Positions 4,097 through 30,040 of a stretch of 64,000 nt of DNA are shown in pieces. The DNA comes from Clostridia bacterium (GTDB lineage: Bacteria > Bacillota > Clostridia > Oscillospirales > QAKW01). The notes under the pieces were generated by a model. It had not been told where the DNA came from. It worked only from the letters and a program-made list of their open reading frames with translations, and did no database searches. Both the position numbers and the translations under genes were made by a program. Each line of letters starts with the position of its first letter. The stretch's first letter is position 1. The stretch spans positions 11,155 through 75,154 of the forward strand of contig JAFSCX010000019.1 in assembly GCA_017436525.1 (NCBI GenBank), in the 5' to 3' direction.

Positions 4097-4130
4097 AAGG
4101 AGTACCATGATGGTACTCCTTTTCTTTTTT
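4097..4130. terminator. Bidirectional intrinsic terminator shared by the aro operon (+) and rnpB (-)
   Basis: Perfect hairpin GGAGTACCAT/ATGGTACTCC. An A-run lies on the left and a T-run on the right, so a U-tract follows the hairpin on both strands. Confidence 0.75.
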
Positions 4131-4155: not shown

Positions 4156-4504
4156 GGGCCGGATCAAGCCTGTAAGCCGAGTTCTGTCGAGAACAGTCAT
4201 CTATCTGGATCCCCCGTTACCGGAGGCCTCAAGCCACGCTTTCAAGGCTGCATGCGGGCGGGTCTCCCTCGCCTTTATCGGTGTTGCATCGGATAGGGTT
4301 TACAGACCCTCTATGTCACCATAGAGGGTGGTGAGCTCTTACCTCGCCTTTCCACCCTTACCGGCAAATGCCGGCGGTATATTTCTGTTGCACTTTCCCT
4401 AAGGTTACCCTCGGTGGGCGTTACCCACTATCCTGACCCGAGATGCTCGGACTTTCCTCCGCTGCACCAAAGGGCAACGGCGACTGTTCAGCTTGGTCCG
4501 ATTG
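4156..4504 (-). ncRNA. rnpB: RNase P RNA (bacterial type A)
   Basis: The reverse complement contains GGAGGAAAGTCCGAGC, GGGAAAGTGCAACAGAAA, GGTAAGGGTGGAAAGGCGAGGTAAGAGCTCACC, CCAGATAGATGA and ACAGAACTCGGCTTACAG. P1 pairing is cggaccaagc (4491-4500) with gcttgatccg (4160-4169). Confidence 0.93.
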
Positions 4505-4542: not shown

Positions 4543-4571
4543 TTGCTAAATTAATTTAATAATTATATAAT
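4543..4571 (+). promoter_or_regulatory. Sigma-A type promoter for the murD operon
   Basis: TTGCTA (4543-4548), 17-nt spacer, TATAAT (4566-4571). Sits back to back with the rnpB promoter. Confidence 0.55.
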
Positions 4572-4622
4572 ATACAGTGTATGTGCAAAAATACGGCATC
4601 CTTTGAAGGAGGTTCTTGGAAG

Positions 4623-6005
4623 ATGAGCGACCATCTTGAGCGGTTCAAAAGAGATATGGCAGGGAAGACGGTAGGCGTTGTAGGAATCGGGGTATCCAAT
4701 ACGCCGATCATTACCATGCTGGCAGGCTTTGGTGTATCGGTGCGTGCTTTTGATAAGCGCCCCGTTGAGCAGCTTGGCGATCCGGGAAAATCCCTGATAG
4801 ATTTAGGGGTTGCGCTTTTCTGCGGCGAGGATTATATGGACCATCTTTCGGGCGATTTGATTATCAAGACGCCGGGGATGCGATTCGATCATCCCGCTTT
4901 AGAGCGTGCCCGCAAGCAGGGGAGCAGGATTACCAGCGAGATGGAGCTTTTCTTTGAATATTGCCCTTGCGAGATAATCGGCATCACCGGCAGCGACGGA
5001 AAGACGACGACGACAAGTCTGATCTATGAGATGCTTTCTCGCACCGATCGCAAGATCCATTTGGGCGGAAATATCGGCTATCCTCTTCTCTGCCGCTTGG
5101 GGGAGATCAAAGAGCAAGATCTGGTCGTGGCAGAGCTTTCCAGCTTTCAGCTGCATACCCTTCGAAAAAGCGCCCATGTAGGGCTGGTTACCAATCTTTC
5201 CCCTAATCATCTTGATATGCATAAGGGAATGGAAGAGTATGTAGAGGCGAAAACCAATCTTTTCCGCTTCCAAGATGAGAAGGATCTTTTGATTTTGAAT
5301 CATGATAATGCGATTACCGCCTCTTTTGAAAAGGAAGCGCGGGGCCGCCTCAGAGTCTTTTCCTTTAAGGGAGATCACGGAATGAGCGGGGCCTTCTATC
5401 AGGATGAGGCAATTTACCTGCGGGATGAGAGCGGAAAATGCCGAAAACTGATCGATCGTGCTCGCTTGAAGCTGCGGGGCAATCACAATGTGGAGAATTT
5501 CATGGCCGCCTGCCTTGCAGCGGCAGATTATTGCTCGGAAAATGAGATGATCGCTGTAGCAGAGCAATTCGGCGGTGTGCGCCATCGAATGGAATTTATC
5601 CGCGAGGTAAGGGGAGTCTGCTTCTATAATGATTCCATCGGCTCTTCTCCCACCCGCACCGTTGCAACCCTTATGAGCTTTGAAAAAAAGGTTCGCCTGA
5701 TTGCAGGCGGCTATGATAAAAAGATTCCCTTTGATCTTTTGGGAGAGGCTGTTCCCAATCATGTGGATAAGCTTTATCTTTGCGGCGTTACCGCTGAGAA
5801 GATCCGCCAAGCGGTGCTGGATCAGACACCCGATTTTCCCATAGAGCTTTTCTCGGATCTGAAATCTGCCATAGAGAAGGCCTATGAAGATTCTGCAGCG
5901 GGAGAGATTGTCTTGCTCTCGCCCGCTTGCGCCAGCTTTGATCAATTTAAGAACTTTGAAGAACGGGGCGATTTCTTTGTCTCGGTAGTAAAGGAATTGA
6001 AATGA
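4623..6005 (+). CDS. murD: UDP-N-acetylmuramoylalanine--D-glutamate ligase
   Basis: Mur ligase motif GITGSDGKTTT and MurD-like N-terminal Rossmann segment GVGVSN. Start chosen at ATG 4623, 8 nt after GAAGGAGG; the ORF track start at 4581 lacks an SD. Confidence 0.9.
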   Translation: MSDHLERFKRDMAGKTVGVVGIGVSNTPIITMLAGFGVSVRAFDKRPVEQLGDPGKSLIDLGVALFCGEDYMDHLSGDLIIKTPGMRFDHPALERARKQGSRITSEMELFFEYCPCEIIGITGSDGKTTTTSLIYEMLSRTDRKIHLGGNIGYPLLCRLGEIKEQDLVVAELSSFQLHTLRKSAHVGLVTNLSPNHLDMHKGMEEYVEAKTNLFRFQDEKDLLILNHDNAITASFEKEARGRLRVFSFKGDHGMSGAFYQDEAIYLRDESGKCRKLIDRARLKLRGNHNVENFMAACLAAADYCSENEMIAVAEQFGGVRHRMEFIREVRGVCFYNDSIGSSPTRTVATLMSFEKKVRLIAGGYDKKIPFDLLGEAVPNHVDKLYLCGVTAEKIRQAVLDQTPDFPIELFSDLKSAIEKAYEDSAAGEIVLLSPACASFDQFKNFEERGDFFVSVVKELK

Positions 6006-7036
6006 AAAATCTGCAAAATTATCTTTTCAAATTATGCGGCGAATGCTTGCCCTCCGGCTTTGAGCGGGAGGAAAAGAGCGTAGAAGCGCTTCTTGCTCCT
6101 TTGGTCGACGAGGTCCATAAAGATTCCTGCGGCAATATTATCGGCTGCCGCAAATCAGCCTTTGGCAATGCCAAAAAAATAATGCTGGATGCCCATCTGG
6201 ATGAGATCGGGCTGATGGTTACCAAAATTGATGATGCCGGTTTTATTCATTTTACCAATCTTGCCGGCTTTTCTCCCATTGCTCTGCCGGCTTCTTCCGT
6301 CATGGTAAAAGGAAAGCGCAATCTTTCAGGCGTTGTGGCAACCTTGCCGCCCCATCTGCTTTCTGCGGAAGAGCGGAAAAAGCCCATTGAGATGAAAAAA
6401 ATGGTCATTGATGTGGGGTATCCTGCAGAGACGGTGCGTGAGCTTATAAAGGTGGGCGATCCCATCATCCTGCGCCAAGGCTGCGCTGAGCTGCTGAATG
6501 ATCGCATTACCGGCAAGGCGCTGGATAATCGGGCGGGAGTTGCTGTCATTTTAGATATGCTTACCACCCTTCAAAAAATGCCCTTGGCGATGGATCTCTA
6601 TGTGGTCTTTTCCGCCGGGGAAGAATTCAGCGGCTTCGGTGCTTTGAATGCAGCCATGGAGATTGCTCCCGATGAGGCGGTGGTAATCGATGTAACCCAT
6701 GGTGAATCCGGCGGCACGCCCAGAGGAAAGGCTTTCCCTTTGGGTTGCGGCGCGGTAATCGGCGTAGCCCCCATTTTATCGGGCGCTGTAACCGATCGAT
6801 TGAAAGAGATGGCAAAGCAATATGTGATCCCCTATGAAATGGAGCCCATCAACGGCAGGACCGGCACCAATAGTGATCAGATCGCTACCAGCAGGTGCGG
6901 CGTTCCCACAGGGCTTGTCTCCATTCCCTTGCGATATATGCATAGCGGCTGTGAGGTGGCGGATCTTAAGGATCTTAAGGCGGTTTCCGATCTTCTGAGC
7001 CGTTATGTCAATCGAGGAGGTGCCCGTTATGAATAA
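6002..7036 (+). CDS. M42 family metallopeptidase (glutamyl aminopeptidase / CelM-like), paralog 1
   Basis: HxDEIG(L)MV, ALDNRAG and EE(F)xG motifs of M42/TET peptidases. ATGA overlap with the murD stop. Confidence 0.8.
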   Translation: MKNLQNYLFKLCGECLPSGFEREEKSVEALLAPLVDEVHKDSCGNIIGCRKSAFGNAKKIMLDAHLDEIGLMVTKIDDAGFIHFTNLAGFSPIALPASSVMVKGKRNLSGVVATLPPHLLSAEERKKPIEMKKMVIDVGYPAETVRELIKVGDPIILRQGCAELLNDRITGKALDNRAGVAVILDMLTTLQKMPLAMDLYVVFSAGEEFSGFGALNAAMEIAPDEAVVIDVTHGESGGTPRGKAFPLGCGAVIGVAPILSGAVTDRLKEMAKQYVIPYEMEPINGRTGTNSDQIATSRCGVPTGLVSIPLRYMHSGCEVADLKDLKAVSDLLSRYVNRGGARYE

Positions 7037-8042
7037 AGAGCTTAGTTATCTGACCTCTCTTTTCGGCGCCTCCGGCAGCGAGAGCGATGTGCGTCAGGCG
7101 ATTATCAGCGAGATTCGCCCCCATTGCGATTCCTTGGAGGTGGATCGGCTCGGAAATATCATTGCCTTCAAAAAAGGCATAGAGCCTGCGCCTTTTCCTG
7201 TAATGCTCTGCGCGCATATGGACGAGGTGGCGCTGATGGTTACCTCCATTGATAAGGATGGTTCTTTGGGCTTTGAGAGCGTGGGCGGAATCGATCCGCG
7301 CATCTTGCCGGGGACCCATGTGGTGATCGGCAAAAAGAAATATCATGGTGTGATCGGTGTCCTTGCTCCTCATTTTGTAAAGGATGGGGAAGAGAAGGTC
7401 CCCAAGATGAAGGATCTTTATATTGATATCGGTGCCAAGGATCAAGAGGATGCCGAGAATTATGTGGCAGTGGGCGATCTGATCGGCTTTGATACCGCTT
7501 ATCAGGAATTCGGAGAAGATCTGGTGCGTGCCAAGGCTCTTGATGATCGAGCAGGATGCTATATTCTGCTTAATATTATGAAAAAGCCCCTTCCTTTCGA
7601 CACTTATTTTGTCTTTTCTGTCATGGAAGAGATCGGATGCCTCGGCGCGCGGACTGCCGCTTTTGCAGTGCAGCCTCAATATGCGCTGATTATTGAAGGC
7701 ACCACCGCAGGCGATATTCATACCGAAACCGATCAGTCGGCGGTATGCCGCTTGGGGCGCGGGCCGGTGGTCTCTTTTATGGATAATAGCGCGATTTATG
7801 ATCGGGAGCTTTATCGCTTGGTTATGAAAACCGCGAAGGAAGAGAATATTCCCGTTCAGGCAAAAGAAGCGGTGGCAGGCGGTAATGAAAGCGGGACCGT
7901 GCAGCGTGCGCTCGGCGGCTGCCGTGTGATTGCCCTTTCGGTGCCGTGCCGCTATATTCATTCTCCTGTCAGTGTTGCAAATCTTAAGGATATTGCCCAT
8001 TGCGAAGAATTGGCTTATGCTTTATTGAAAAATTTATTGTAA
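7029..8042 (+). CDS. M42 family metallopeptidase, paralog 2
   Basis: AHMDEVALMV, ALDDRAG and MEEIG motifs. Start at ATG 7029 after AGGAGG; overlaps the end of paralog 1. Confidence 0.8.
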   Translation: MNKELSYLTSLFGASGSESDVRQAIISEIRPHCDSLEVDRLGNIIAFKKGIEPAPFPVMLCAHMDEVALMVTSIDKDGSLGFESVGGIDPRILPGTHVVIGKKKYHGVIGVLAPHFVKDGEEKVPKMKDLYIDIGAKDQEDAENYVAVGDLIGFDTAYQEFGEDLVRAKALDDRAGCYILLNIMKKPLPFDTYFVFSVMEEIGCLGARTAAFAVQPQYALIIEGTTAGDIHTETDQSAVCRLGRGPVVSFMDNSAIYDRELYRLVMKTAKEENIPVQAKEAVAGGNESGTVQRALGGCRVIALSVPCRYIHSPVSVANLKDIAHCEELAYALLKNLL

Positions 8043-8043
8043 G

Positions 8044-9015
8044 GTGGCAAAAATGATTAATCAATTAAAAGAATTGGTAAGCAAAAAAAGTGTTTCCGGA
8101 AATGAGCGGGTTGTCGCATCTTATATCAAGGAGCAGATCCTGCCCTATGCCGATAAGGTCTATGAAGATGCTTTGGGCAATCTGATTGCGGTCCGCCGCG
8201 GGGAAGGGCCGAAGGTTATGGTCATGGCCCATATGGATGAGATCGGGCTTGTGGCCACCTTTGCAGACGATAAGGGCTTTATTCGCGTCTCTGCAGTAGG
8301 AGGCGTTCACCCGCAAAAGACGGCCGGCCGCCCCGTTATTTTTGAAAACGGTGTTATGGGCGTGTTTGTGGCGGGCAAAGAGCAGAAAATGAGCGATTGC
8401 TATATCGATATCGGCGCTAAGGATCAGCGGGATGCGCTTTCTCGGATCGAGATCGGAATGACGGCCTCCTTTGTAACCGAAACCTTTGAGACCGGTGAAA
8501 AAATCGTCTCCGGTGCGCTGGATAATCGGATCGGCTGCTTCTGCTTGATAGAAGCTTTGAAGCGGCTTAAGAATTGCAGCTGTGAATTTTATGCGGTCTT
8601 TACGGTGCAGGAAGAGGTAGGGCTGCGCGGTGCAAAGGTCAGCGGATTTGAAATTGCGCCGGAGGTTGCCCTTGCAGTGGATGTTACCTTGAGCGGCGAT
8701 CATCCGGAAGGGGCCGATACCTCTGCATCCTTGGGAAAAGGCTGTGCCATTAAAATGCGGGATCGCTCTGCGATCTGCAGTAGGGAAGTGGTAGAGGATC
8801 TGGAGAATCTTGCGGCCCGAAAGGGAATTCCCATTCAGCGGGATGTGCTCTCCTCCGGCGGGACCGATATCGGCAGTGTTCAGCTGCTTGGTAAAGGCGT
8901 GCAGGTAGGAGGGCTCAGCATCCCCATCCGCTATTGCCATTCCGCTATCGAGATGGCAGATCGTAAGGATGTGGAGGCGACCATCGCTCTGCTGCTTGCT
9001 TATTTGGAAAAATAA
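8044..9015 (+). CDS. M42 family metallopeptidase, paralog 3
   Basis: AHMDEIGLV, ALDNRIG and QEEVGLRG motifs. Start is GTG 8044 or ATG 8053. Confidence 0.8.
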   Translation: MAKMINQLKELVSKKSVSGNERVVASYIKEQILPYADKVYEDALGNLIAVRRGEGPKVMVMAHMDEIGLVATFADDKGFIRVSAVGGVHPQKTAGRPVIFENGVMGVFVAGKEQKMSDCYIDIGAKDQRDALSRIEIGMTASFVTETFETGEKIVSGALDNRIGCFCLIEALKRLKNCSCEFYAVFTVQEEVGLRGAKVSGFEIAPEVALAVDVTLSGDHPEGADTSASLGKGCAIKMRDRSAICSREVVEDLENLAARKGIPIQRDVLSSGGTDIGSVQLLGKGVQVGGLSIPIRYCHSAIEMADRKDVEATIALLLAYLEK

Positions 9016-9076: not shown

Positions 9077-12000
9077 TTGCGGTTAAAGTGTTTAGATATA
9101 CAGGGCTTTAAGTCCTTCCCCGATAAGATCAATATCGGATTTGATCACGGGATTACAGCGATTGTTGGCCCCAACGGCTCGGGAAAGAGTAATGTTTCCG
9201 ATGCGATTCGCTGGGTATTGGGTGAGCAATCCAATAAGAGCCTTCGAAGCACCAAGATGGAGGATGTGATCTTTTCCGGTACAGCCAAGCGGAAGCCTCA
9301 GGGCTTTGCCGAGGTCAGCCTGACCATTGATAATAGCGACCATGCCCTCAATGTGGATTATAATGAGGTAATGATTACGCGTCGGTATTATCGTAGCGGC
9401 GAAAGTGAATATTTTATCAATAAATCTCCTGCCCGTCTTCGGGATATTCATGAAATGTTTATGGATACCGGTATCGGGCGGGATGGTTATTCCATTATCG
9501 GTCAGGGCACCATCGATCAGATCCTGCTTGGAAAAAGCGAAGAGCGGCGCTCTATGCTGGAGGAGGTGGCAGGGATCTCCAAATTCCGCTATCGCAAAAA
9601 TGAAGCGGAGCGTAAGCTGAATTCCACCGAAGAAAATCTTGTGCGGCTCAACGATATTGTAGGGGAGCTGAGAGAGCGCCTGCCCAATCTGGAGCGGCAA
9701 GCCGATAAGGCCAAGAAATATCTTGCCATGTATGAGGAGCGCAAGAGCCTGGAGATTGCCATTTGGCTGCAGGAGCTGGATCAGATCAAGGTCAATGCAT
9801 CTAAGATTGAGGAAAGCCATGCCATCGCCAAAGGGCAGCTGGATGATCTTACCATCGAAGTGGAAAATATGGAGCAGGAGATCAACGATCTCTTCCAGCG
9901 CAATGTGGATATCAATACCGAAATTGAGCAGATTCGCTTGCAGCAAAGCGGCTGGGATGAGCAGATCGGTGCGCTGAATTCTCAAAGAGCGGTGCTGGAA
10001 AGTCAGGCGGCTTTTGAGCAGGAGACCGTTGCCCGCTTGGAGCAGGAGCTTTCTTCTGTCAATACCCGCAAGACCGAGCTGAATGATCGGATCAGAGGTT
10101 ATCATACCGAAATCGAAGAAAAGCAAGCAAAGATCCAATCCATCGAGGAGCAGATCACAGCCCTTTTCAAAGAGACCGAATCGATTATTGCCAAAAGTGA
10201 GGATCAGCGTAAGCAGGCCGAGGAGCTGCAGGTGCGCTTGCAGCAAAATGCCGCCGTGCGCAACGCCGCGCAGATGGATGGGATTTCTCTTTCTTCCTCT
10301 ATGGAGGGCTATGACCATCGCAAAGCCGAATTGGAGGAAGCGATGGCGGAGCAGCAAGCCAAGATTGCGGAGGTAGAAGAAGAGCTTGAAGCGATCGATC
10401 GTGAGCAGCTGAAGATGAGCGAAGAGATCGAAAGCGAGAATAATGCGGCTGCAGGCCTTAAGAAGATGCTGGAGATCAAGGATCGCAATTATAATGAGGC
10501 CTTGGAAGCGGAGCAGAAATCTGCTGCACGCAGAGATGCGTTGATTCAAAGAGAGAATATTCTCGCAGAGATGGAAAAGCATCTGGAAGGCTTTGGCGGT
10601 GCGGTCAAGCTGGTGATTGAGCAGAGCCAAAGAGGCGTTCTGCAGGGGATTATCGGCCCTGTATCAAAGCTGATTAAGGTTGAAAAAGAATACTTAATTG
10701 CGGTGGAGACCGCGCTGGGTACTGCTATTCAAAATATTGTAACCCAAGATAGCAAGGCGGCGAAAAATGCCATGCTTCTTTTGAAGAACCGAGGTGCAGG
10801 CCGCGCCACCTTCCTGCCCCTTGCGGATATTACGCCTAAGGATGTGAAGGAAGATTTCAGCAAGCAGATCGGCTTTTTGGGTGTGGCAGATACTTTGGTT
10901 AAGACTGATAAGGCCCATGAGAAGGCCATCGCCTTCCTTTTGGGCAGGACCTTGGTCTGCGATACCATTGATCATGCGCTGTCTCTTGCAAAGGCTTGCA
11001 ATAATAAGTATAAGATTGTTACTTTGGACGGTCAGGTGATCAATGCAGGCGGCTCCATGACGGGCGGCAGCGCCGCCAAGAGCGCAGGGCTTCTTTCCCG
11101 CGGTTTGGAGCTGGAGCAGCTGGCCAAAGAGCTTGAAGCAGAAGATAGGAAATATCAAGAGCTACATAGCAAGCTGGAAAAAGCCGAAAGCGAAAAAGCC
11201 ACTCTCGACGCTCGCCTGCAAGGGTCCGAGGATGCCATCCATCAGCTTACCGAAGATCGGCTTCGTCTGGCAGGTCTTTATGAGAATAAAGCAGTGGTCA
11301 AGGAATCCTATCTTGCCATTTTGGAGGGCTATAAGCGCGAGATGGAGACTCTTCATACCGCTTCCGGTGATGCCGGTCAGCGGTTGGAAGAAAATAAAGC
11401 CCGTCAGCAAGAACTTGCTAAGGTTGCAGAAGAGCTGCAAGATCAGCTGACCTCCTTGCAGGGATTGGGTGCTGATGATCAGGCGCGGATGGAAGCGCTC
11501 AAGAGCAAGACGGCCGCTCATGAAATGGATAAGGTTTCCTTGTTTAAGGAAATCGAGGGGATCAATTCTTTGATCGGTCAGCTGGAAAATCAGCTGCTTT
11601 TGATTGATAAAGAAGAGGCTGAGAAGGCGCTGCATATCGAAGAATCCATGGCGCGCAGCCAAAAGGCAAAAGAGGATGCCGCTTCTATGGAGGAGCAGGC
11701 TGCCGCTTTAAGACGCCAGCATGAAGAAGGAAAAGAGCAGATTACTGCTTTGGTGCAGCGCCGGCAAGAGCAGGATCAGAAGCAGACTCAATATCGAGCA
11801 GAGCTCAAGGGCAAGAATGAAGCCAAGGGTAAGCTGATCGAAGAGGTAGCGCGCTTGGATCACCGCCTTGCAGGGATTACCGATCAATCGGATCGGATTA
11901 TTGCTCAGCTTCTGGATGTCTATGAGCTGACGGTTACCGATGCCAAGAAGATCGTTGTCCCGCCGGAGGATTATGCCGAGGCCAAGCGCCGCGTTCAATC

Positions 12001-19610: not shown

Positions 19611-19685
19611 GCGGGTGTAGCACATCGGCTAGTGCATCGGCCTTCCAAGCCGAGGAGGTGGGTTCGATTCCCATCACCCGCTCCA
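19611..19685 (+). tRNA. tRNA-Gly (anticodon UCC)
   Basis: Acceptor stem GCGGGTG/CACCCGC, anticodon stem TCGGC/GCCGA with loop CTTCCAA, T-arm GGTTCGATTCC, encoded CCA. Confidence 0.9.
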
Positions 19686-19692
19686 TTTTTTT

Positions 19693-19769
19693 GCGCTTTT
19701 AGCTCAGCTGGATAGAGCAACTGCCTTCTAAGCAGTAGGTCGGGGGTTCGAGTCCCTCAAAGCGCGCCA
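19693..19769 (+). tRNA. tRNA-Arg (anticodon UCU)
   Basis: Acceptor stem GCGCTTT/AAAGCGC, D-arm AGCTCAGCTGGATAGAGC, anticodon loop CTTCTAA, T-arm GGTTCGAGTCC, encoded CCA. Confidence 0.9.
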
Positions 19770-23754: not shown

Positions 23755-26382
23755 ATGAAGGAATATTTGCGATCAAAAGATGAAGTGCTTCAGGCCCAAG
23801 GCGTGGATGAAGCAGGCCTTAGCGAGCAGGAGGCTCAAAAGAGGGCGGCAGAATTCGGCCCTAATAGATTGGCAGAGGGAAAGAAACCCTCTCTCTTTTC
23901 TCGGTTTATCAAAGAATTATCCGATCCGATGATTTTGATTCTGCTGGGCGCCGCAGTGATTTCTGCGGTTACGGCAGTTATATCCGATGAATCCTTCGCC
24001 GATGTGATCATCATTTTAGCGGTGGTATTGATCAATGCGATCTTGGGTGTCGTGCAGGAAAGCAAGGCGGAGAAAGCCATTGAAGCCTTAAAGGAGATCA
24101 CGGCCGCCACCTCGAAAGTCATCCGAGACGGGCGTCAGATGGTGGTCCGCAGCGATGAGCTGGTGTGCGGTGATATTATTATTTTGGAAGCAGGCGATTC
24201 TGTCCCTGCAGATGCCCGCATTATCGAATGTGCCAGCATGAAGGTAGAGGAGGCTGCTCTTACAGGCGAATCGGTGCCGGTGGAAAAAGCGGTAGACGCT
24301 CTTTCTGCGGCAGAGGATAAAGATATCCCGCTGGGGGATCGAATTAATATGGTCTATATGGGAAGCACGGTTGTATACGGCCGTGGGGTCGCTGTGGTTA
24401 CCGCCATCGGTATGCAGACGGAGATGGGTAAGATTGCCGATGCGCTCACCCAATCCAAAGATGATGAGACTCCCTTGCAGATTAAGCTGAATCAGCTGAG
24501 CAAGATTTTAAGCTTTTTGGTCCTGGGGATTTGCGGCGTGATTTTTGCCATCAATCTTTTGGGTGCCGAGGCCATCAATAGCGAAATTTTGCTGGATACC
24601 TTCCTTGTGGCTATCAGCTTGGCGGTTGCGGCAATTCCGGAAGGTCTTGCCGCAGTGGTAACCATTGTGCTCTCTATCGGTGTTACCAATATGAGCAAGC
24701 GGAATGCGGTGATTCGTAAACTCACCGCAGTAGAGACCCTTGGCTGCACCCAAATTATCTGCTCCGATAAGACCGGCACCCTTACTCAGAATAAAATGAC
24801 GGTGGTGGATCATTCTTCTGATGATCCTGATGCATTAATGATGGCAATGGCTCTTTGCAGCGATGCCAAATTGGATCAAAGCGGAGAAGCCATCGGCGAG
24901 CCTACCGAATGTGCTCTTGTAAATGATGCGCATCAATTGGGGCTGGATGAGAAAATTGCCGCTTATCGGCGGATCGGGGAAGCTCCTTTTGATTCCGATC
25001 GCAAAATGATGTCCACAGTATGCATCAATCAAGCAGGAGAGATCATTCAATTTACAAAAGGCGCCCCCGATGAAGTCTTAAAATGCTGCACGACCATCCT
25101 AAAAGATGGAAAGGAAATCCCCTTTACAGATGAATTGCGTCAGCAGGTGCTGGCGCAGAATAAAAAATATGCTGATCAGGCGCTTCGGGTGCTTGCGGCA
25201 GCCAAGCGGGCATGGGAATCTGAGCCGAAATCCAATGCTCCCGAGGAGCTGGAGCAGAATCTTTGCTTCATAGGTCTTTGCGGAATGATTGATCCCATTC
25301 GCCCTGAGGTAAAGGTGGCGATTGAGGAATGTCGCACTGCAGGAATTCGGCCCATAATGATTACCGGAGATCATAAGGATACAGCCACCGCCATTGCCAA
25401 AGAGCTGGGAATTCTTGCCGAGGGGCAGGCCGCCATTACCGGCGCAGAGCTAAATGAAATTACCGATGAAACCCTTGCGCGGGATATTGAAAAATATTCA
25501 GTCTATGCACGCGTGCAGCCGGAGCATAAGACCCGCATTGTATCTGCTTGGAAGGCGCGCGGCTGCATTACTGCTATGACGGGGGACGGTGTCAACGATG
25601 CGCCCTCTATCAAAACCGCCGATATCGGAATCGGCATGGGAATTACCGGCACCGATGTTACCAAGAATGTGGCGGATATGGTATTGGCTGATGATAATTT
25701 TGCTACCATTGTCGGCGCAGTGGAAGAGGGAAGAAGGATCTATTCTAATATCAGAAAATCCATCCAATTTCTGCTCTCTGCCAATCTTGCCGAGGTGCTT
25801 TCCATCTTCTTCTCCACATTGCTTGGATTTGTGATTTTGAAGCCGGTCCATCTTCTTTGGATCAATTTGATTACCGATACTTTCCCCGCCTTAGCACTGG
25901 GCGCGGAGCGAGCCGAGGCGGATGTCATGAAGCGCGCTCCCCGCGATCCCAAAGAGGGAATCTTTGCGGGCGGCCTTGGATTCGATGTGGCTTTTCAGGG
26001 CGTAATCATTACCATTCTTACGCTGGCCTCCTATTTCATCGGTCATTTTATCGAAAGCGGGAAATGGGAGATCGCCAACAGCACCGACGGAATGACCATG
26101 GCGTTCCTTACCCTTTCTTTGGTAGAAATTTTTCATTCCTTTAATATGCGCTCCAGAAGAGAATCGGTCTTTCGGATGCAGAGCCATAATAAGCTTCTTT
26201 GGGGCTCTATGGTCTTCTCCTTTGTGGCGACAACATCTGTCATTTATATCCCGTTTCTCCGAGAGGCCTTTGGCTTTGAAATGATTTCTTTGGCGGAATA
26301 CGGAGTGGCAATCCTTCTCGCAATTCTCATTATCCCTATTATGGAGCTTGTAAAATTCATTCAACGAAAGCTTGAAAAATAA
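23755..26382 (+). CDS. Cation-transporting P-type ATPase (P2 / Ca2+-Mn2+ type)
   Basis: 875 aa with TGES, ICSDKTGTLTQN, MITGDH, TGDGVNDAP and about 10 TM segments. Confidence 0.92.
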   Translation: MKEYLRSKDEVLQAQGVDEAGLSEQEAQKRAAEFGPNRLAEGKKPSLFSRFIKELSDPMILILLGAAVISAVTAVISDESFADVIIILAVVLINAILGVVQESKAEKAIEALKEITAATSKVIRDGRQMVVRSDELVCGDIIILEAGDSVPADARIIECASMKVEEAALTGESVPVEKAVDALSAAEDKDIPLGDRINMVYMGSTVVYGRGVAVVTAIGMQTEMGKIADALTQSKDDETPLQIKLNQLSKILSFLVLGICGVIFAINLLGAEAINSEILLDTFLVAISLAVAAIPEGLAAVVTIVLSIGVTNMSKRNAVIRKLTAVETLGCTQIICSDKTGTLTQNKMTVVDHSSDDPDALMMAMALCSDAKLDQSGEAIGEPTECALVNDAHQLGLDEKIAAYRRIGEAPFDSDRKMMSTVCINQAGEIIQFTKGAPDEVLKCCTTILKDGKEIPFTDELRQQVLAQNKKYADQALRVLAAAKRAWESEPKSNAPEELEQNLCFIGLCGMIDPIRPEVKVAIEECRTAGIRPIMITGDHKDTATAIAKELGILAEGQAAITGAELNEITDETLARDIEKYSVYARVQPEHKTRIVSAWKARGCITAMTGDGVNDAPSIKTADIGIGMGITGTDVTKNVADMVLADDNFATIVGAVEEGRRIYSNIRKSIQFLLSANLAEVLSIFFSTLLGFVILKPVHLLWINLITDTFPALALGAERAEADVMKRAPRDPKEGIFAGGLGFDVAFQGVIITILTLASYFIGHFIESGKWEIANSTDGMTMAFLTLSLVEIFHSFNMRSRRESVFRMQSHNKLLWGSMVFSFVATTSVIYIPFLREAFGFEMISLAEYGVAILLAILIIPIMELVKFIQRKLEK

Positions 26383-26390
26383 ATCGGAAG

Positions 26391-26421
26391 ATCGGCAAAT
26401 CCATCTTGGATTTGCCGATCT
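26391..26421. repeat. 31-bp hairpin repeat, copy 1 (no U-tract)
   Basis: ATCGGCAAATCCATCTTGGATTTGCCGATCT, identical to 26815-26845. Lies directly after the ATPase stop codon. Confidence 0.9.
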
Positions 26422-26423
26422 CA

Positions 26424-26460
26424 GCGTGTCAAAAAACTCCTGCGGAGGTTTTTGACACGC
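26424..26460. other. Long near-perfect hairpin
   Basis: GCGTGTCAAAAAACTCC / GGAGGTTTTTGACACGC, 16 bp with one A-G mismatch, loop TGC. No U-tract on either strand. Confidence 0.8.
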
Positions 26461-26666
26461 TGGTAGACTCTCAAAAAAAGTGCAGATTTCGTCGATCTGT
26501 TCTCGTCGGCGTTTTTGGGGGTCCCCGACAAAACTGAAGTTTTGTTGGGGAAAAGGAGGACCTAATGGTATAAGTGGATATTTTGCCATCATGCAAAATG
26601 GAACGGTTACCATTAGGTTTGACGCACGGTAGAGTGCAGATCGGCGGAAAGCAGAAAATTTTATTC

Positions 26667-26696
26667 AAAATCCGCATCATCATGCGGATTTTTCCT
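26667..26696. terminator. Terminator-like hairpin inside the intergenic segment
   Basis: 10-bp stem AAAATCCGCA/TGCGGATTTT, loop TCATCA, T-rich on both flanks. Confidence 0.45.
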
Positions 26697-26814
26697 TATT
26701 ATAAGAAAGCAAGGAAAAAGAGTGGGCTTTCTTTTCTCTTGCTGATTTATAGAATCGGCAGAATTCTTTAGTTCTCTTATTTTCTGCGGTCTGTGCCTTT
26801 TTTGACAGTCTGAA

Positions 26815-26851
26815 ATCGGCAAATCCATCTTGGATTTGCCGATCTTTTTTT
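26815..26851 (+). terminator. 31-bp hairpin repeat, copy 2, with a U-tract (functional-looking terminator)
   Basis: Same 31 bp as 26391-26421, here followed by TTTTTTT. Confidence 0.8.
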
Positions 26852-26869
26852 AATTTCTTCTATGATCTA

Positions 26870-26899
26870 TTGACAAAGAGAAAGCAACTATTTTATACT
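26870..26899 (+). promoter_or_regulatory. Promoter of the dockerin-GDPD gene
   Basis: TTGACA (26870-75), 18-nt spacer, TATACT (26894-99). SD is GAGGAGA before ATG 26945. Confidence 0.5.
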
Positions 26900-26944: not shown

Positions 26945-29900
26945 ATGAGAAAATCCAAATTTCGTATTCTATGTATCGCTGTGATCGCAGTATTACTGGT
27001 GGGAATGTATCCCTTTGCAGCCTCTGCGGAAGGGGAGAAAAGTCTCTCTGAGAAGCAGATCGCTTATTTTTCTGCGCCGGCATTATTTGCCGATGTGGGA
27101 GAGACGATTGATCTATCGGATTGCTCGGTGATGTTTGAGGTGAATAATGTTACGCCCGCATCGGAGATCACATGGTCTTCCGAGGATATCGCAATTATTG
27201 ACGGAAAAATTACACCCGCCGCCAAAGGGGTATATACTTTGTTTGCAATCGGCGCCGGGTATGGAAAGGATATCTATTTGGTTGTAAAAGATCCGTCTGA
27301 AGAAGAATATGTCCTTTATCAAAAAGATTTTTCAAATGTGGAATCCTTTGCAGCGCTGCAGCAAGAAGGATATTTTATCGCCCAGAAAAGTTATGGGCAA
27401 AATGTCTTGGTAACCAATGGTAAATTAGTGCTGGATGGTGATTCAGCCAATAAGCAAATGAGAGTGCTTCTCCCGTGGTGGATTGCTGATTTTGGTGATT
27501 ATACTTTTGAGGCTAATATCAGCTTTGATGATGCATACAACAATACTCGCTGGCTTGCCCTTGGCTATCGCACCCAAAGAGGGACAGGGTATTATCCTTA
27601 TATTCCTTACCAGGTTTTCACTACCCGGGCCAATAGCCATGAAAATCATTCCGGAGTAGAATTCAACCGTACCACCACAGCCGATACCTGGAATACAGCG
27701 TTTGGTGCCCAAAATACCTTTAATATCTATCAAAACGGTTCTCATCTTTATAAGGTTGAGGCGTATGGGACCCATCAAACCGGCTCCATCGACGGTGTTG
27801 TTGTTCATGACAATGAATTTCCATCGGAGCACACCACCGGCGGTGTCGGCTTTGTATCCGGTGGTGCGGAGATTGCCGTTTCCGATCTGAAAATCACTTT
27901 GGATCGCAAGGCAATTGAGCGGCTATATAAGAAGGTTATCACCGATGCAGATCCTGCATTATATGCAAAAGCAGGGGAGAAGATTGATCTTTCTCAGTAT
28001 AGCGTCATGTATAATAATGCTTCCGCTGTATGTGCGGAGCATCTTGCTTGGTCCTCTTCGGAGCTCATCATCACCAATGGGATGGTCTCGGCGGAAAAGG
28101 CAGGGGTTTATTCTTTGACTGCCTCTGTAAAAAATCCGCCTGTCAATGTTTCTGGAAATCCTGCAACTCTTTCCAGAACGATCTATTTAATGGTAAATAC
28201 CAAAATGAATGAGGTGGATGCTCCTGCATCAAATGTAGTGATGCCTGCCTCTGTGATTACTTATATCAATAGCAAAGCGGAGTTAGAGGGCCTTCTCAGC
28301 TATGATCCGGCTCCTGCTACTGCCATTCTTCGGCTGAATGAAAAATTAGATGCAGTGAATAAAGAAGGCGAGAAAATTGCCTCTTTAGAGGATGCACTCC
28401 TTGCTCTTGGAGAGCGCGTCATTCCGGCTTTTTATGTAGCCCATACCAAGGCGGTTGATGCTCTTTGCGCTTACGCAGAAAAAAATGATTTAAGTGATAG
28501 CTTTGTTGTTGCGCAGGATCCTTCTCTTATTAAGCAAGCAAGGGAAGGCTATTATTTCTTCCGCGGGGTGCTGGATCTTTCCGGCAGGCAACTTGAGAGT
28601 TTATATGAAGCAAGAAAGCGGACCAATGAGGCAGGAGCACGCATCTGCATTTTGCCGGATTCTTTAGTGAATAAGAAAAATGTAGAAAATTTGCAACGGC
28701 TGTTTATGACGGTTTGGGCAGAGCCTCAAGACGCATCTCCCGTTGAGCTGGTTGGTGCCATCACCGGCGGTGCGAATGGAATTATTACATCTGATCCTGC
28801 CGCTTTGATGGATGCTTTTACGAAATATTTTGATGAAAATACAATTACGCGCTCTACTGCGCTGATTGGGCATCGCGGCTCCCCCTCTTTAGGGCAGCCG
28901 AATACAGTGGCTGGATCCATGAAGGCATATGAAGCCGGCGCTACGGCCATAGAAAACGATGTATATATCACAGCCGATGGTGTGGTCGTTGTAATGCATG
29001 ATGCCACCATCGATGCCACCACAAACGGCAGCGGAAAAGTAGAAAATATGACCTATGCGCAGTTGCAGCAATATCATGTGGATGTCAATGTCAATGCGGA
29101 TCCCGAGCCCATCCCCACTTTGGAAGAATATTTTGAAGTCTTCAAGGGGATGGATGTGCAGCTGATTGTAGAGATTAAATCCGCAAAGGCTGCTATTTGC
29201 CAAGCGATTGCGGATCTGATTGAGAAATATGATATTGCAAATCAGGTTAATGTCATCTCTTTTAATGGTGCTCAGCTCTTGGAAATGAAGCGAATCCTGC
29301 CCGAAATTTCTGTGGGCTTGCTATCATCGGCTGTTATTGCCAACGATCATGCGATTGATATTTCCACTTATAAAATTCTGAATATTGTCCAGCGTTATAA
29401 TTCTACCCTTAATCCTCAATTTAGTAAGGGACCTGTGGACAAAGGGGTTATGACTGCCGCCCATCATCGTGGAGTAGGCCTCCATCTTTGGACATTGAAT
29501 AATGCCAATGATCAAAATTACTATTTCATGAATGGTGCCAATTCGCTGACCACCGATTATACGCAAAACTTTTCTGATATGGTCAAATCCCTTTCCACAC
29601 CAAAGGATATCTATCGAATCACATCAAACGGGATCAATTTCAAACTCACCTCCAAAACTTATGATCGCGGGGTGGCCGCAGTTTCTGCAGCTGAGATGCG
29701 AATCATAGAAGGGGATGAGATTTTCACCTATAAAAATGGCAGAATCACCGCCAATGGCAATGGTTCTGCAACGGTGATCTTTACCATGCCCTGCACCACC
29801 TCCAATGGTCAATCTTATCATGTCGCATCAGAGCCGATCGTGCTGCGTTATGAGGATGTAGTGCCGGGAGATATCGGTTGCGATGGGATGGTTACCATCG

Positions 29901-30040
29901 CCGATGCAGTAGTGCTGTTGCGCTATCTTCTCGGTGATGTGGATGAAATCGCACTTGCGAATGCCGATATGAATCATGATGAAATCATTTCTACAGCAGA
30001 TGCTGTAGAGATTCTTCGCTATGCGATGAAACAACCTTAA
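26945..30040 (+). CDS. Secreted multidomain glycerophosphodiester phosphodiesterase with a C-terminal dockerin
   Basis: Signal peptide MRKSKFRILCIAVIAVLLVGMYPFAASA, then Ig-like segments and a DUF1080/LamG-like beta-sandwich region. The GDPD core has motifs GHRGxP...ENT/D and MHD. The last 60 aa (29858-30037) form two F-hand dockerin repeats (GDIGCDGMVTIADAV / ADMNHDEIISTADAV). Confidence 0.85.
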   Translation: MRKSKFRILCIAVIAVLLVGMYPFAASAEGEKSLSEKQIAYFSAPALFADVGETIDLSDCSVMFEVNNVTPASEITWSSEDIAIIDGKITPAAKGVYTLFAIGAGYGKDIYLVVKDPSEEEYVLYQKDFSNVESFAALQQEGYFIAQKSYGQNVLVTNGKLVLDGDSANKQMRVLLPWWIADFGDYTFEANISFDDAYNNTRWLALGYRTQRGTGYYPYIPYQVFTTRANSHENHSGVEFNRTTTADTWNTAFGAQNTFNIYQNGSHLYKVEAYGTHQTGSIDGVVVHDNEFPSEHTTGGVGFVSGGAEIAVSDLKITLDRKAIERLYKKVITDADPALYAKAGEKIDLSQYSVMYNNASAVCAEHLAWSSSELIITNGMVSAEKAGVYSLTASVKNPPVNVSGNPATLSRTIYLMVNTKMNEVDAPASNVVMPASVITYINSKAELEGLLSYDPAPATAILRLNEKLDAVNKEGEKIASLEDALLALGERVIPAFYVAHTKAVDALCAYAEKNDLSDSFVVAQDPSLIKQAREGYYFFRGVLDLSGRQLESLYEARKRTNEAGARICILPDSLVNKKNVENLQRLFMTVWAEPQDASPVELVGAITGGANGIITSDPAALMDAFTKYFDENTITRSTALIGHRGSPSLGQPNTVAGSMKAYEAGATAIENDVYITADGVVVVMHDATIDATTNGSGKVENMTYAQLQQYHVDVNVNADPEPIPTLEEYFEVFKGMDVQLIVEIKSAKAAICQAIADLIEKYDIANQVNVISFNGAQLLEMKRILPEISVGLLSSAVIANDHAIDISTYKILNIVQRYNSTLNPQFSKGPVDKGVMTAAHHRGVGLHLWTLNNANDQNYYFMNGANSLTTDYTQNFSDMVKSLSTPKDIYRITSNGINFKLTSKTYDRGVAAVSAAEMRIIEGDEIFTYKNGRITANGNGSATVIFTMPCTTSNGQSYHVASEPIVLRYEDVVPGDIGCDGMVTIADAVVLLRYLLGDVDEIALANADMNHDEIISTADAVEILRYAMKQP

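Follow-up and report, generated by a model that had tools for sequence, protein, structure and literature searches.

The duplicated terminator hairpin

The 64-kb stretch of contig JAFSCX010000019.1 analysed here as a whole (the window), which belongs to a metagenome-assembled genome (MAG) of a Clostridia bacterium, contains a P-type cation ATPase gene whose terminator hairpin is present twice, with a hairpin-dense insert between the two copies. This insert is very probably a non-autonomous DNA transposon of about 391 bp, similar to the MITEs (miniature transposable elements with inverted repeats), that entered the ATPase terminator and generated a target duplication of the length of the hairpin itself. 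The locus is organized as follows:

23755-26382 (+): P-type cation ATPase gene (Pfam E1-E2_ATPase, Cation_ATPase_N/C and Hydrolase), the gene whose terminator is hit by the insert
26389-26421 (+): upstream stem-loop, copy 1 of the target-site duplication, with a 15-bp stem and TCT loop, now severed from its U-tract
26422-26812: inserted non-coding element, 391 bp, or 393 bp when the AA at 26813-14 is counted as well, with tips 5'-CAG...CTG-3'
26813-26852 (+): downstream stem-loop, copy 2 of the target-site duplication, which together with the original T7 forms an intact intrinsic terminator
26870-26899 (+): sigma-70-like promoter TTGACA-18-TATACT of the GDPD/dockerin gene, outside the insert and present at empty sites too
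26945-30040: gene for a secreted GDPD/dockerin protein, downstream of the insert

The 31-mer ATCGGCAAATCCATCTTGGATTTGCCGATCT is found without any change at 26391-26421 and at 26815-26845, 424 bp apart, and a U-tract (T7) is located behind the second copy only, both as noticed in a previous annotation made from the letters of the window without database searches (the sequence-only reading). Each copy can form a stem of 13-15 bp closed by the 3-nt loop TCT. The duplication is perfect when it is taken as 31 nt; taken as 33 nt (26389-26421 vs 26813-26845), it is identical at 32 of 33 positions and corresponds exactly to the 15-bp stem plus the loop. None of 100 dinucleotide-preserving shuffles gave a match at three or fewer mismatches, and this pair is the sole repeat of such a kind within the window.

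Beyond the 31-mer, the orientation of the flanks is inverted and not direct, a point overlooked by the sequence-only reading: the arms 26388-26436 and 26798-26846 (49 nt) are 88% complementary. Since the flanks are inverted outside the 31-mer, the insert has inverted termini of its own. Its left tip is CAGCGTGTCAAAAAA and its right tip, once reverse-complemented, is CAGACTGTCAAAAAA, both being identical at 13 of 15 positions. The insert's GC content is 42%, vs 47% for the window. An invertible promoter (inverton) was considered as an explanation for the inverted flanks and rejected: the TCT loop points the same way in the two copies, no promoter lies within the insert, and that of the downstream gene is located outside it.

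Empty and filled sites in related genomes

The same locus was recovered from other assemblies by exact-protein look-ups. The sequence-only reading had suggested that about 424 bp had been placed between the stem and its U-tract, or that the stem had been copied, and had set the existence of empty sites in relatives as a test of mobility. Such sites exist, and at them a single hairpin is directly followed by T7. In a scan of the GTDB representative genomes the 31-mer was present at only one place, which is the orthologous locus of an Eubacteriales MAG (L009, assembled with MEGAHIT, k141) that shares 94.5% nucleotide identity with the window upstream and 84.5% downstream. The order in this genome is ATPase stop codon, AATCGGAAG, one hairpin, and T7. 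Four further loci (L011-14), whose GDPD orthologue is 85% identical at the amino acid level, carry a single, slightly different hairpin plus T7, and a more distant one (L010, 67% amino acid identity) has an unrelated single terminator and no insert. The outcome in L009 and L011-14 thus favours mobility. The intergenic spacer has 563 nt in the window vs 138 nt in L011-14 and 139 nt in L006, L009 being likewise empty. A search of the relatives' loci with a regular expression for the tips (tip regex) showed no other copy of the insert.

Since the orthologous loci of three lineages are empty and 424 bp shorter, the window holds a recent insertion; the filled state is, as judged from the sequences compared, derived, and the perfection of the repeat indicates that it is also recent. 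The empty site of L006 has flanks near-identical to those of the window (769/769 and 99.97% of 7233 nt). This is a Logan contig built with k=31, the length of the repeat, so that the loop has possibly been collapsed and this site is not relied on.

An independent k141 contig of 93.8 kb (L001/L005) has the filled arrangement without a single base difference. Contigs from five other samples (L002, L003, L004, L007 and L008; 99.9-100% identity to the window) enter the insert from the left or from the right and stop inside it. The break points, which are the ends of L002, L003 and L004 and the starts of L007 and L008, match window positions 26415-26474 and 26761-26787. Either the hairpin-dense insert fragments short-read assemblies, or these samples contain mixed populations of filled and empty sites. 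The breaks could also be taken as signs of an assembly artefact or a chimera at the palindrome. However, the identity of the full arrangement in the window and in the 93.8-kb contig, as well as the entry of contigs from five further samples into the insert from either side, make an artefact extremely improbable.

Coding capacity and RNA content of the insert

As stated by the sequence-only reading, the insert has no convincing open reading frame (ORF). The longest ones encode 43-70 amino acids, and nine candidates have no exact match in a collection of 15 billion proteins. A six-frame bait of the insert (698 amino acids) retrieved nothing at E≤10 from 5.8 billion protein clusters. Of the RNA families in Rfam, including 6S RNA, tmRNA, SRP RNA, riboswitches and large ncRNAs, none comes near its threshold between 25800 and 27400 at E≤10, the best one being SSRC38 with 27.5 bits vs 80. 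A scan of the whole window at Rfam gathering scores detected RNase P RNA and two tRNAs only, none of them in the insert. A search of the insert for a sigma-70-like promoter found none.

These data bear on the second proposal of the sequence-only reading, a small RNA (sRNA) locus built by duplication. In this explanation the insert would be a host gene for an sRNA or structured RNA, or a 3' untranslated region module, derived from the terminator by duplicating it locally, and the relatives would have lost the copy by repeat-mediated deletion. The extremely stable fold and the terminator-like hairpin inside the insert would suit such a gene, and deletion between 31-bp direct repeats is mechanistically easy. 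However, the insert is absent from close relatives and, in all, from three successively more distant lineages, one of which has an unrelated terminator; it shows neither a promoter-like site nor an Rfam match even at E≤10; the perfect repeat implies a recent event; and a multi-copy repeat family described below has homologous tips. The sRNA proposal is therefore not upheld, and we consider it very unlikely.

Structure of the insert

The region 26383-26860 folds far more stably than shuffled controls (z = -16.3 on the + strand and -15.3 on the - strand), and so does the insert alone when it is folded as single-stranded DNA (z = -11.4). All the internal hairpins listed by the sequence-only reading are present, either at the coordinates it gave or no more than 1-2 nt away from them, and the recurring pieces that it pointed out, CTGCGG..TTTTTGACA, GTGCAGAT..CGGCG and AATCGGCAGAAT, are all seen in the sequence. 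The following features can be distinguished:

26422-26462: terminal hairpin 'End-2', CAGCGTGTCAAAAAACTCC-TGC-GGAGGTTTTTGACACGCTG, formed by the tip and an inverted copy of it, with a 19-bp stem and a 3-nt loop (hairpin I2, 26422-40 / 26444-62)
26464-26504: holds the third tip-like repeat, TAGACTCTCAAAAAAAG, as well as the left arm of a long-range inverted repeat, which pairs with 26632-26649 and 26790-26811
26522-26618: two hairpins, 26522-26551 (I8, 26522-35 / 26538-51) and 26560-26618 (I9, 26560-70 / 26608-18), predicted to form the apex of a rod-like fold
26667-26696 (+): terminator-like hairpin within the insert, with an 11-bp stem (I10, 26667-77 / 26682-92) and then TTTTTCC, a putative terminator
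26790-26812 (-): simple inverted-repeat end 'End-1', reading CAGACTGTCAAAAAAGGCACAGA on the minus strand

The segment 26650-26789 splits an otherwise continuous 40-nt inverted repeat (I3 and I6), and from this interruption the element of the window looks nested. The hairpin 26560-26618 has at its base, on the side of the hairpin 26522-26551, a strong Shine-Dalgarno-like sequence, AAAGGAGG, followed after 5 nt by the two-codon ORF ATG GTA TAA (window 26552-26573), which may be a chance occurrence.

A repeat family with similar ends in Subdoligranulum variabile

When the right end of the insert was used as query in a short-query blastn search, five places were found in Subdoligranulum variabile TSDC17.2-1.1 (Oscillospiraceae), each of them with 23/25 identical positions. 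In all five, the matching bases form the outermost end of a repeat, which begins right after a GC-rich stem-loop. The End-1 tip of the window and the left tip of the S. variabile repeat, CAGACTGTCGAAAAAGGCAAAGA, are identical at 21 of 23 positions. One S. variabile copy, used in turn as query, matches 31 places in 14 records. The common form of this repeat has 172 bp and its variants 154-370 bp. The longer variants (227-370 bp; L025 2708-3077, L015 2503-~2812 and L021 1497-1723) have conserved ends and owe their length to GC-rich hairpin modules inserted internally.

One end of the S. variabile repeat is CAGACTGTCGAAAAAGGCAAAGAAGG, and the other is a terminal hairpin, CAGCTTGGCGCAAAAGC-GCA-GCTTTTTCGACAAGCT(G), which can also be read as CAGCTTGGCGCAAAAGC-GCA-GCTTTTTCGACAAGCTG. 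The architecture of the ends is thus common to the S. variabile repeat and the window element: a simple tip on one side, and a hairpin made of the tip and its inverted copy on the other. The loop of the window End-2, TGC, is the reverse complement of the S. variabile loop, GCA.

Eight S. variabile loci could be resolved, and in them a direct repeat of 26-42 bp, with another sequence at every locus, borders the copy on both sides:

L016: flanking repeat of 41 bp, no mismatches
L017: flanking repeat of 30 bp, 1 mismatch
L018: flanking repeat of 42 bp, 1 mismatch
L019: flanking repeat of 37 bp, no mismatches
L020: flanking repeat of 33 bp, no mismatches
L021: flanking repeat of 41 bp, no mismatches
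L022: flanking repeat of 27-30 bp, 1 mismatch
L029: flanking repeat of 26 bp, no mismatches

Every one of these repeats can be folded into an entire stem-loop (9-18 pairs) that leaves 3 unpaired nt or fewer on either side, and in several copies (for instance L021) a T-run follows right behind the downstream repeat only. Four more copies adjoin a hairpin at the tip that could be located; the copy of L025 has no flanking hairpin. Together with that of the window, nine different hairpins have been duplicated whole, with borders located no more than 3 nt from the base of the stem. The element is non-coding and has inverted ends; the stem-loops that it enters are unrelated in sequence, and what becomes duplicated is the stem-loop itself.

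These loci bear on two other explanations for the arrangement of the window. The first one is a remnant of integrase-mediated insertion, either of the cis-mobilizable element type (CIME-like) or consisting of attP only, in which the hairpin would be the att core and the repeated GTCAAAAAA would represent arm-type sites. The perfect 31-bp direct repeats around the insert, the position of the target at the 3' end of a gene, and the presence of the GTCAAAAAA motif four times in both orientations fit this model. However, the flanking repeats of S. variabile vary in sequence and length from locus to locus, and the att model fails because flanking repeats differ between loci. Besides, the 31-bp hairpin is single-copy across the GTDB representative genomes and absent from IMG/VR, and neither an integrase nor a larger element is present at the site in any relative examined. 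The integrase model is largely refuted and retains very little probability.

The second one is the capture of DNA at a broken cruciform, without any transposon: the hairpin-capped ends would have been opened and filled, and an unrelated fragment ligated between them. The order palindrome-insert-palindrome would also be expected from such an event, and the fact that no second copy of the insert was found in the databases searched agrees with it. Nevertheless, the insert ends in inverted tips of its own that are in register with the hairpins, one of them matches the end of a family present at 31 places, and the same signature is found at no fewer than eight independent loci. Capture is disfavoured because random capture would not repeat the same ends, and we give it a very low probability.

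The S. variabile sequences belong to the PLSDB records OY725836-OY725880 (24-387 kb), which are labelled 'plasmid: N' and 'circular', with numbers that reach at least 'plasmid: 46'. The 14 records examined are essentially unannotated and carry ordinary chromosomal-looking genes; these records look like chromosome contigs mislabelled as plasmids. A scan of IMG/VR for the tips gave one chance match and one shortened S. variabile-type copy. The latter is a truncated element in a 65.6-kb 'viral' contig (L035, IMGVR_UViG_3300029886_000168; reverse complement, ~4570-4790), and its flanking hairpin is the same as that of the S. variabile locus L032. This contig represents either a prophage region or host DNA that was placed among the viral sequences.

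Nature of the element and proposed mechanism of insertion

The insert is small, lacks a credible ORF, carries terminal inverted repeats and, when compared with the empty site, is bordered by a target-site duplication, all of which are features of MITEs. The duplication is the exception within this picture: it has 31 bp (33 with one mismatch) in the window and 26-42 bp in S. variabile, instead of the 2-10 bp that are usual in MITEs. On these grounds a MITE-like non-autonomous transposon with a hairpin-length target duplication is, in our opinion, the most convincing explanation, and we hold it with considerable confidence. The sequence-only reading had thought of a small mobile element that either targets or carries terminator hairpins. 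Targeting agrees with the empty sites and with the hairpin duplications of S. variabile. Carrying does not, as the hairpin is host DNA duplicated on insertion.

Different results weigh against a transposon. No second copy of the insert was found in the 64-kb window (blastn with word size 7, and tip regex), no similarity was detected with PLSDB plasmids or GenBank phages (blastn, distant mode), exact patterns of the insert gave no copy in IMG/VR, and the exact left-end 24-mer and the hairpin core gave no other copy in JGI metagenomes. The interiors of the window insert and of the S. variabile repeats are unrelated, the likeness being that of a tip of about 23 nt and of the end architecture. Neither among the S. 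variabile matches nor in the 116-kb record OY725837.1 was there an autonomous element or a transposase that has these tips. The empty site with the most similar flanks, L006, may be an assembly collapse and not a real empty allele. Finally, the geometry of attack proposed in the next paragraph is tentative, its probability being somewhat below one half.

The insertion could proceed in the following way. A trans-acting transposase, presumably of the DDE type, would bind the tips of the element; the extra copies of the tip near one end (26448-62 and 26464-80) might provide additional binding sites. This enzyme would recognize the structure of the target stem-loop or cruciform and not its sequence, and would attack both strands at the two stem bases, which lie next to each other in space only if the palindrome forms an extruded cruciform or hairpin. 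The whole hairpin would then be duplicated by gap repair, and the product would have the order stem-loop, element, stem-loop plus U-tract.

A more specific version, which we regard as rather unlikely, attributes the insertion to an uncharacterised transposase, possibly IS1182-like or host-encoded, that targets the extruded terminator cruciform and always cuts at both stem bases. If that were true, integration would be measured by structure, in a manner comparable in its logic to the repeat duplication by Cas1-Cas2, the family would be invisible to standard MITE finders, and terminator stems would be systematically uncoupled from their U-tracts across Oscillospiraceae and Eubacteriales genomes.

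Neither has a candidate for the parent element emerged from OY725837.1. A tblastn search of this record with the Escherichia coli IS30 transposase found nothing. The segment of this record from End-1 at 4122 to End-2 at 10700 (L036) was also considered as an autonomous element, and was rejected, as there are ordinary genes between both ends and no matching flanking hairpin. These ends are correctly oriented and 6.6 kb apart; recombination between copies could have left them behind as two half-elements.

Relationship to known mobile elements

The duplication of a whole hairpin on insertion is a known but rare kind of event, and insertion sequences that integrate likewise have previously been reported. 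For IS1630 of Mycoplasma fermentans (IS30 family), two publications describe duplications of inverted repeats of 19-26 bp (PMC2853133) and 16-26 bp (PMC3317919). IS1630 is like the window element in that the whole inverted-repeat target is duplicated and the termini are inverted. The variable length and sequence of the duplicated inverted-repeat targets of IS1630 are matched by the window and the eight S. variabile loci. In this respect the element works like IS1630. However, IS1630 is autonomous, has 1.2-1.4 kb, encodes an IS30-type transposase and comes from a mollicute, whereas the window element is a non-coding DNA of 391 bp from a Clostridia MAG. The duplications of the window and S. variabile (26-42 bp) are also longer than those of IS1630, and no IS30-type gene is linked to the window element in the one 116-kb record examined.

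IS1272 and TnSha1, members of the IS1182 family from staphylococci, target terminator hairpins at the stem, in both orientations and with little primary-sequence specificity (PMC4923244). Other members of this family target palindromes, according to the quotation of Siguier et al. 2015 in PMC4923244. Insertion into terminator hairpins without sequence specificity is thus common to IS1272/TnSha1 and to the window and S. variabile elements. However, insertion of IS1272/TnSha1 deletes part of the hairpin and produces no target duplication (PMC4923244), whereas in the window and in S. variabile whole hairpins are duplicated. Membership of the element in either the IS30 or the IS1182 family cannot be claimed, because no transposase is linked to it. 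For the IS1182 family as a whole, ISfinder reportedly gives direct repeats of 0-60 bp.

Classical MITEs, such as Correia, RUP and MITEAba12, are small, non-coding and intergenic, have terminal inverted repeats and fold into long hairpins; their transposase is supplied in trans and they are polymorphic between strains. Their target duplications ordinarily have 2-10 bp (PMC11602168), unlike those of the window and S. variabile, whose 26-42 bp are set by the structure of the target. As far as a limited literature search shows, neither the window element nor the S. variabile family seems to have been described before among the elements that duplicate a hairpin on insertion.

Different mechanisms that could place DNA at or within a hairpin were also discarded. 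A MITE that had entered the loop of the hairpin and duplicated the 3-bp TCT would need element ends that perfectly match a local terminator which is single-copy across the GTDB representative genomes. An element of the IS200/IS605 or REP/RAYT type is at odds with the empty site, which keeps one hairpin. Group IIC introns insert directly behind the stem of intrinsic terminators, but they are ribozyme retroelements without inverted termini or hairpin duplication. The insert lacks ribozyme domains, and its inverted tips and the duplication of the hairpin contradict such an intron; at E≤10 Rfam gives only group II D1-D4, with 15.7 bits vs a threshold of 34.5 bits, and no match to Intron_gpII. For comparison, Cas1-Cas2 duplicates the whole CRISPR repeat, a palindrome of ~30 bp, by staggered attack at both of its borders. 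This is an analogy only: the enzyme, the substrate (a spacer of ~30 bp) and the type of locus are different, and nothing here points to Cas proteins.

Expected consequences of the insertion

Since the insertion parts the terminator stem from its U-tract, the 3' ends of the upstream gene and the extent of read-through should change. RNA polymerase leaving the ATPase gene would meet the stem-loop 26389-26421 without a U-tract and would read into the element. It could then be halted by the internal hairpin 26667-26696, whose 11-bp stem is followed by TTTTT and which is the likely first stop for ATPase read-through, or by the regenerated terminator 26815-26852. The promoter of the GDPD/dockerin gene is untouched by the insertion.

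The locus offers a clean natural case, with empty sites, of transposition into intrinsic terminators that is apparently directed by structure and not by sequence. S. variabile adds eight more loci with distinct targets, from which the cutting rule can be read (stem base ±3 nt). Since the duplications of 26-42 bp exceed the 2-10 bp assumed by MITE software, elements of this class have probably been under-annotated; the halves of the hairpin would be misread by standard MITE finders as parts of the inverted repeats. There is also a practical side, since metagenome contigs from several samples are probably broken by this hairpin-dense element.

Other features of the window

The Rfam matches at gathering score in the window correspond to an RNase P RNA of class A at 4157-4499 (-), with 269 bits, and to two tRNA genes at 19611-19682 and 19693-19766 (+). 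Three tandem paralogous genes of ~323-345 amino acids are located at 6002-9015 (+), with a conserved 63-nt block every ~1 kb; this arrangement looks like a local gene triplication.

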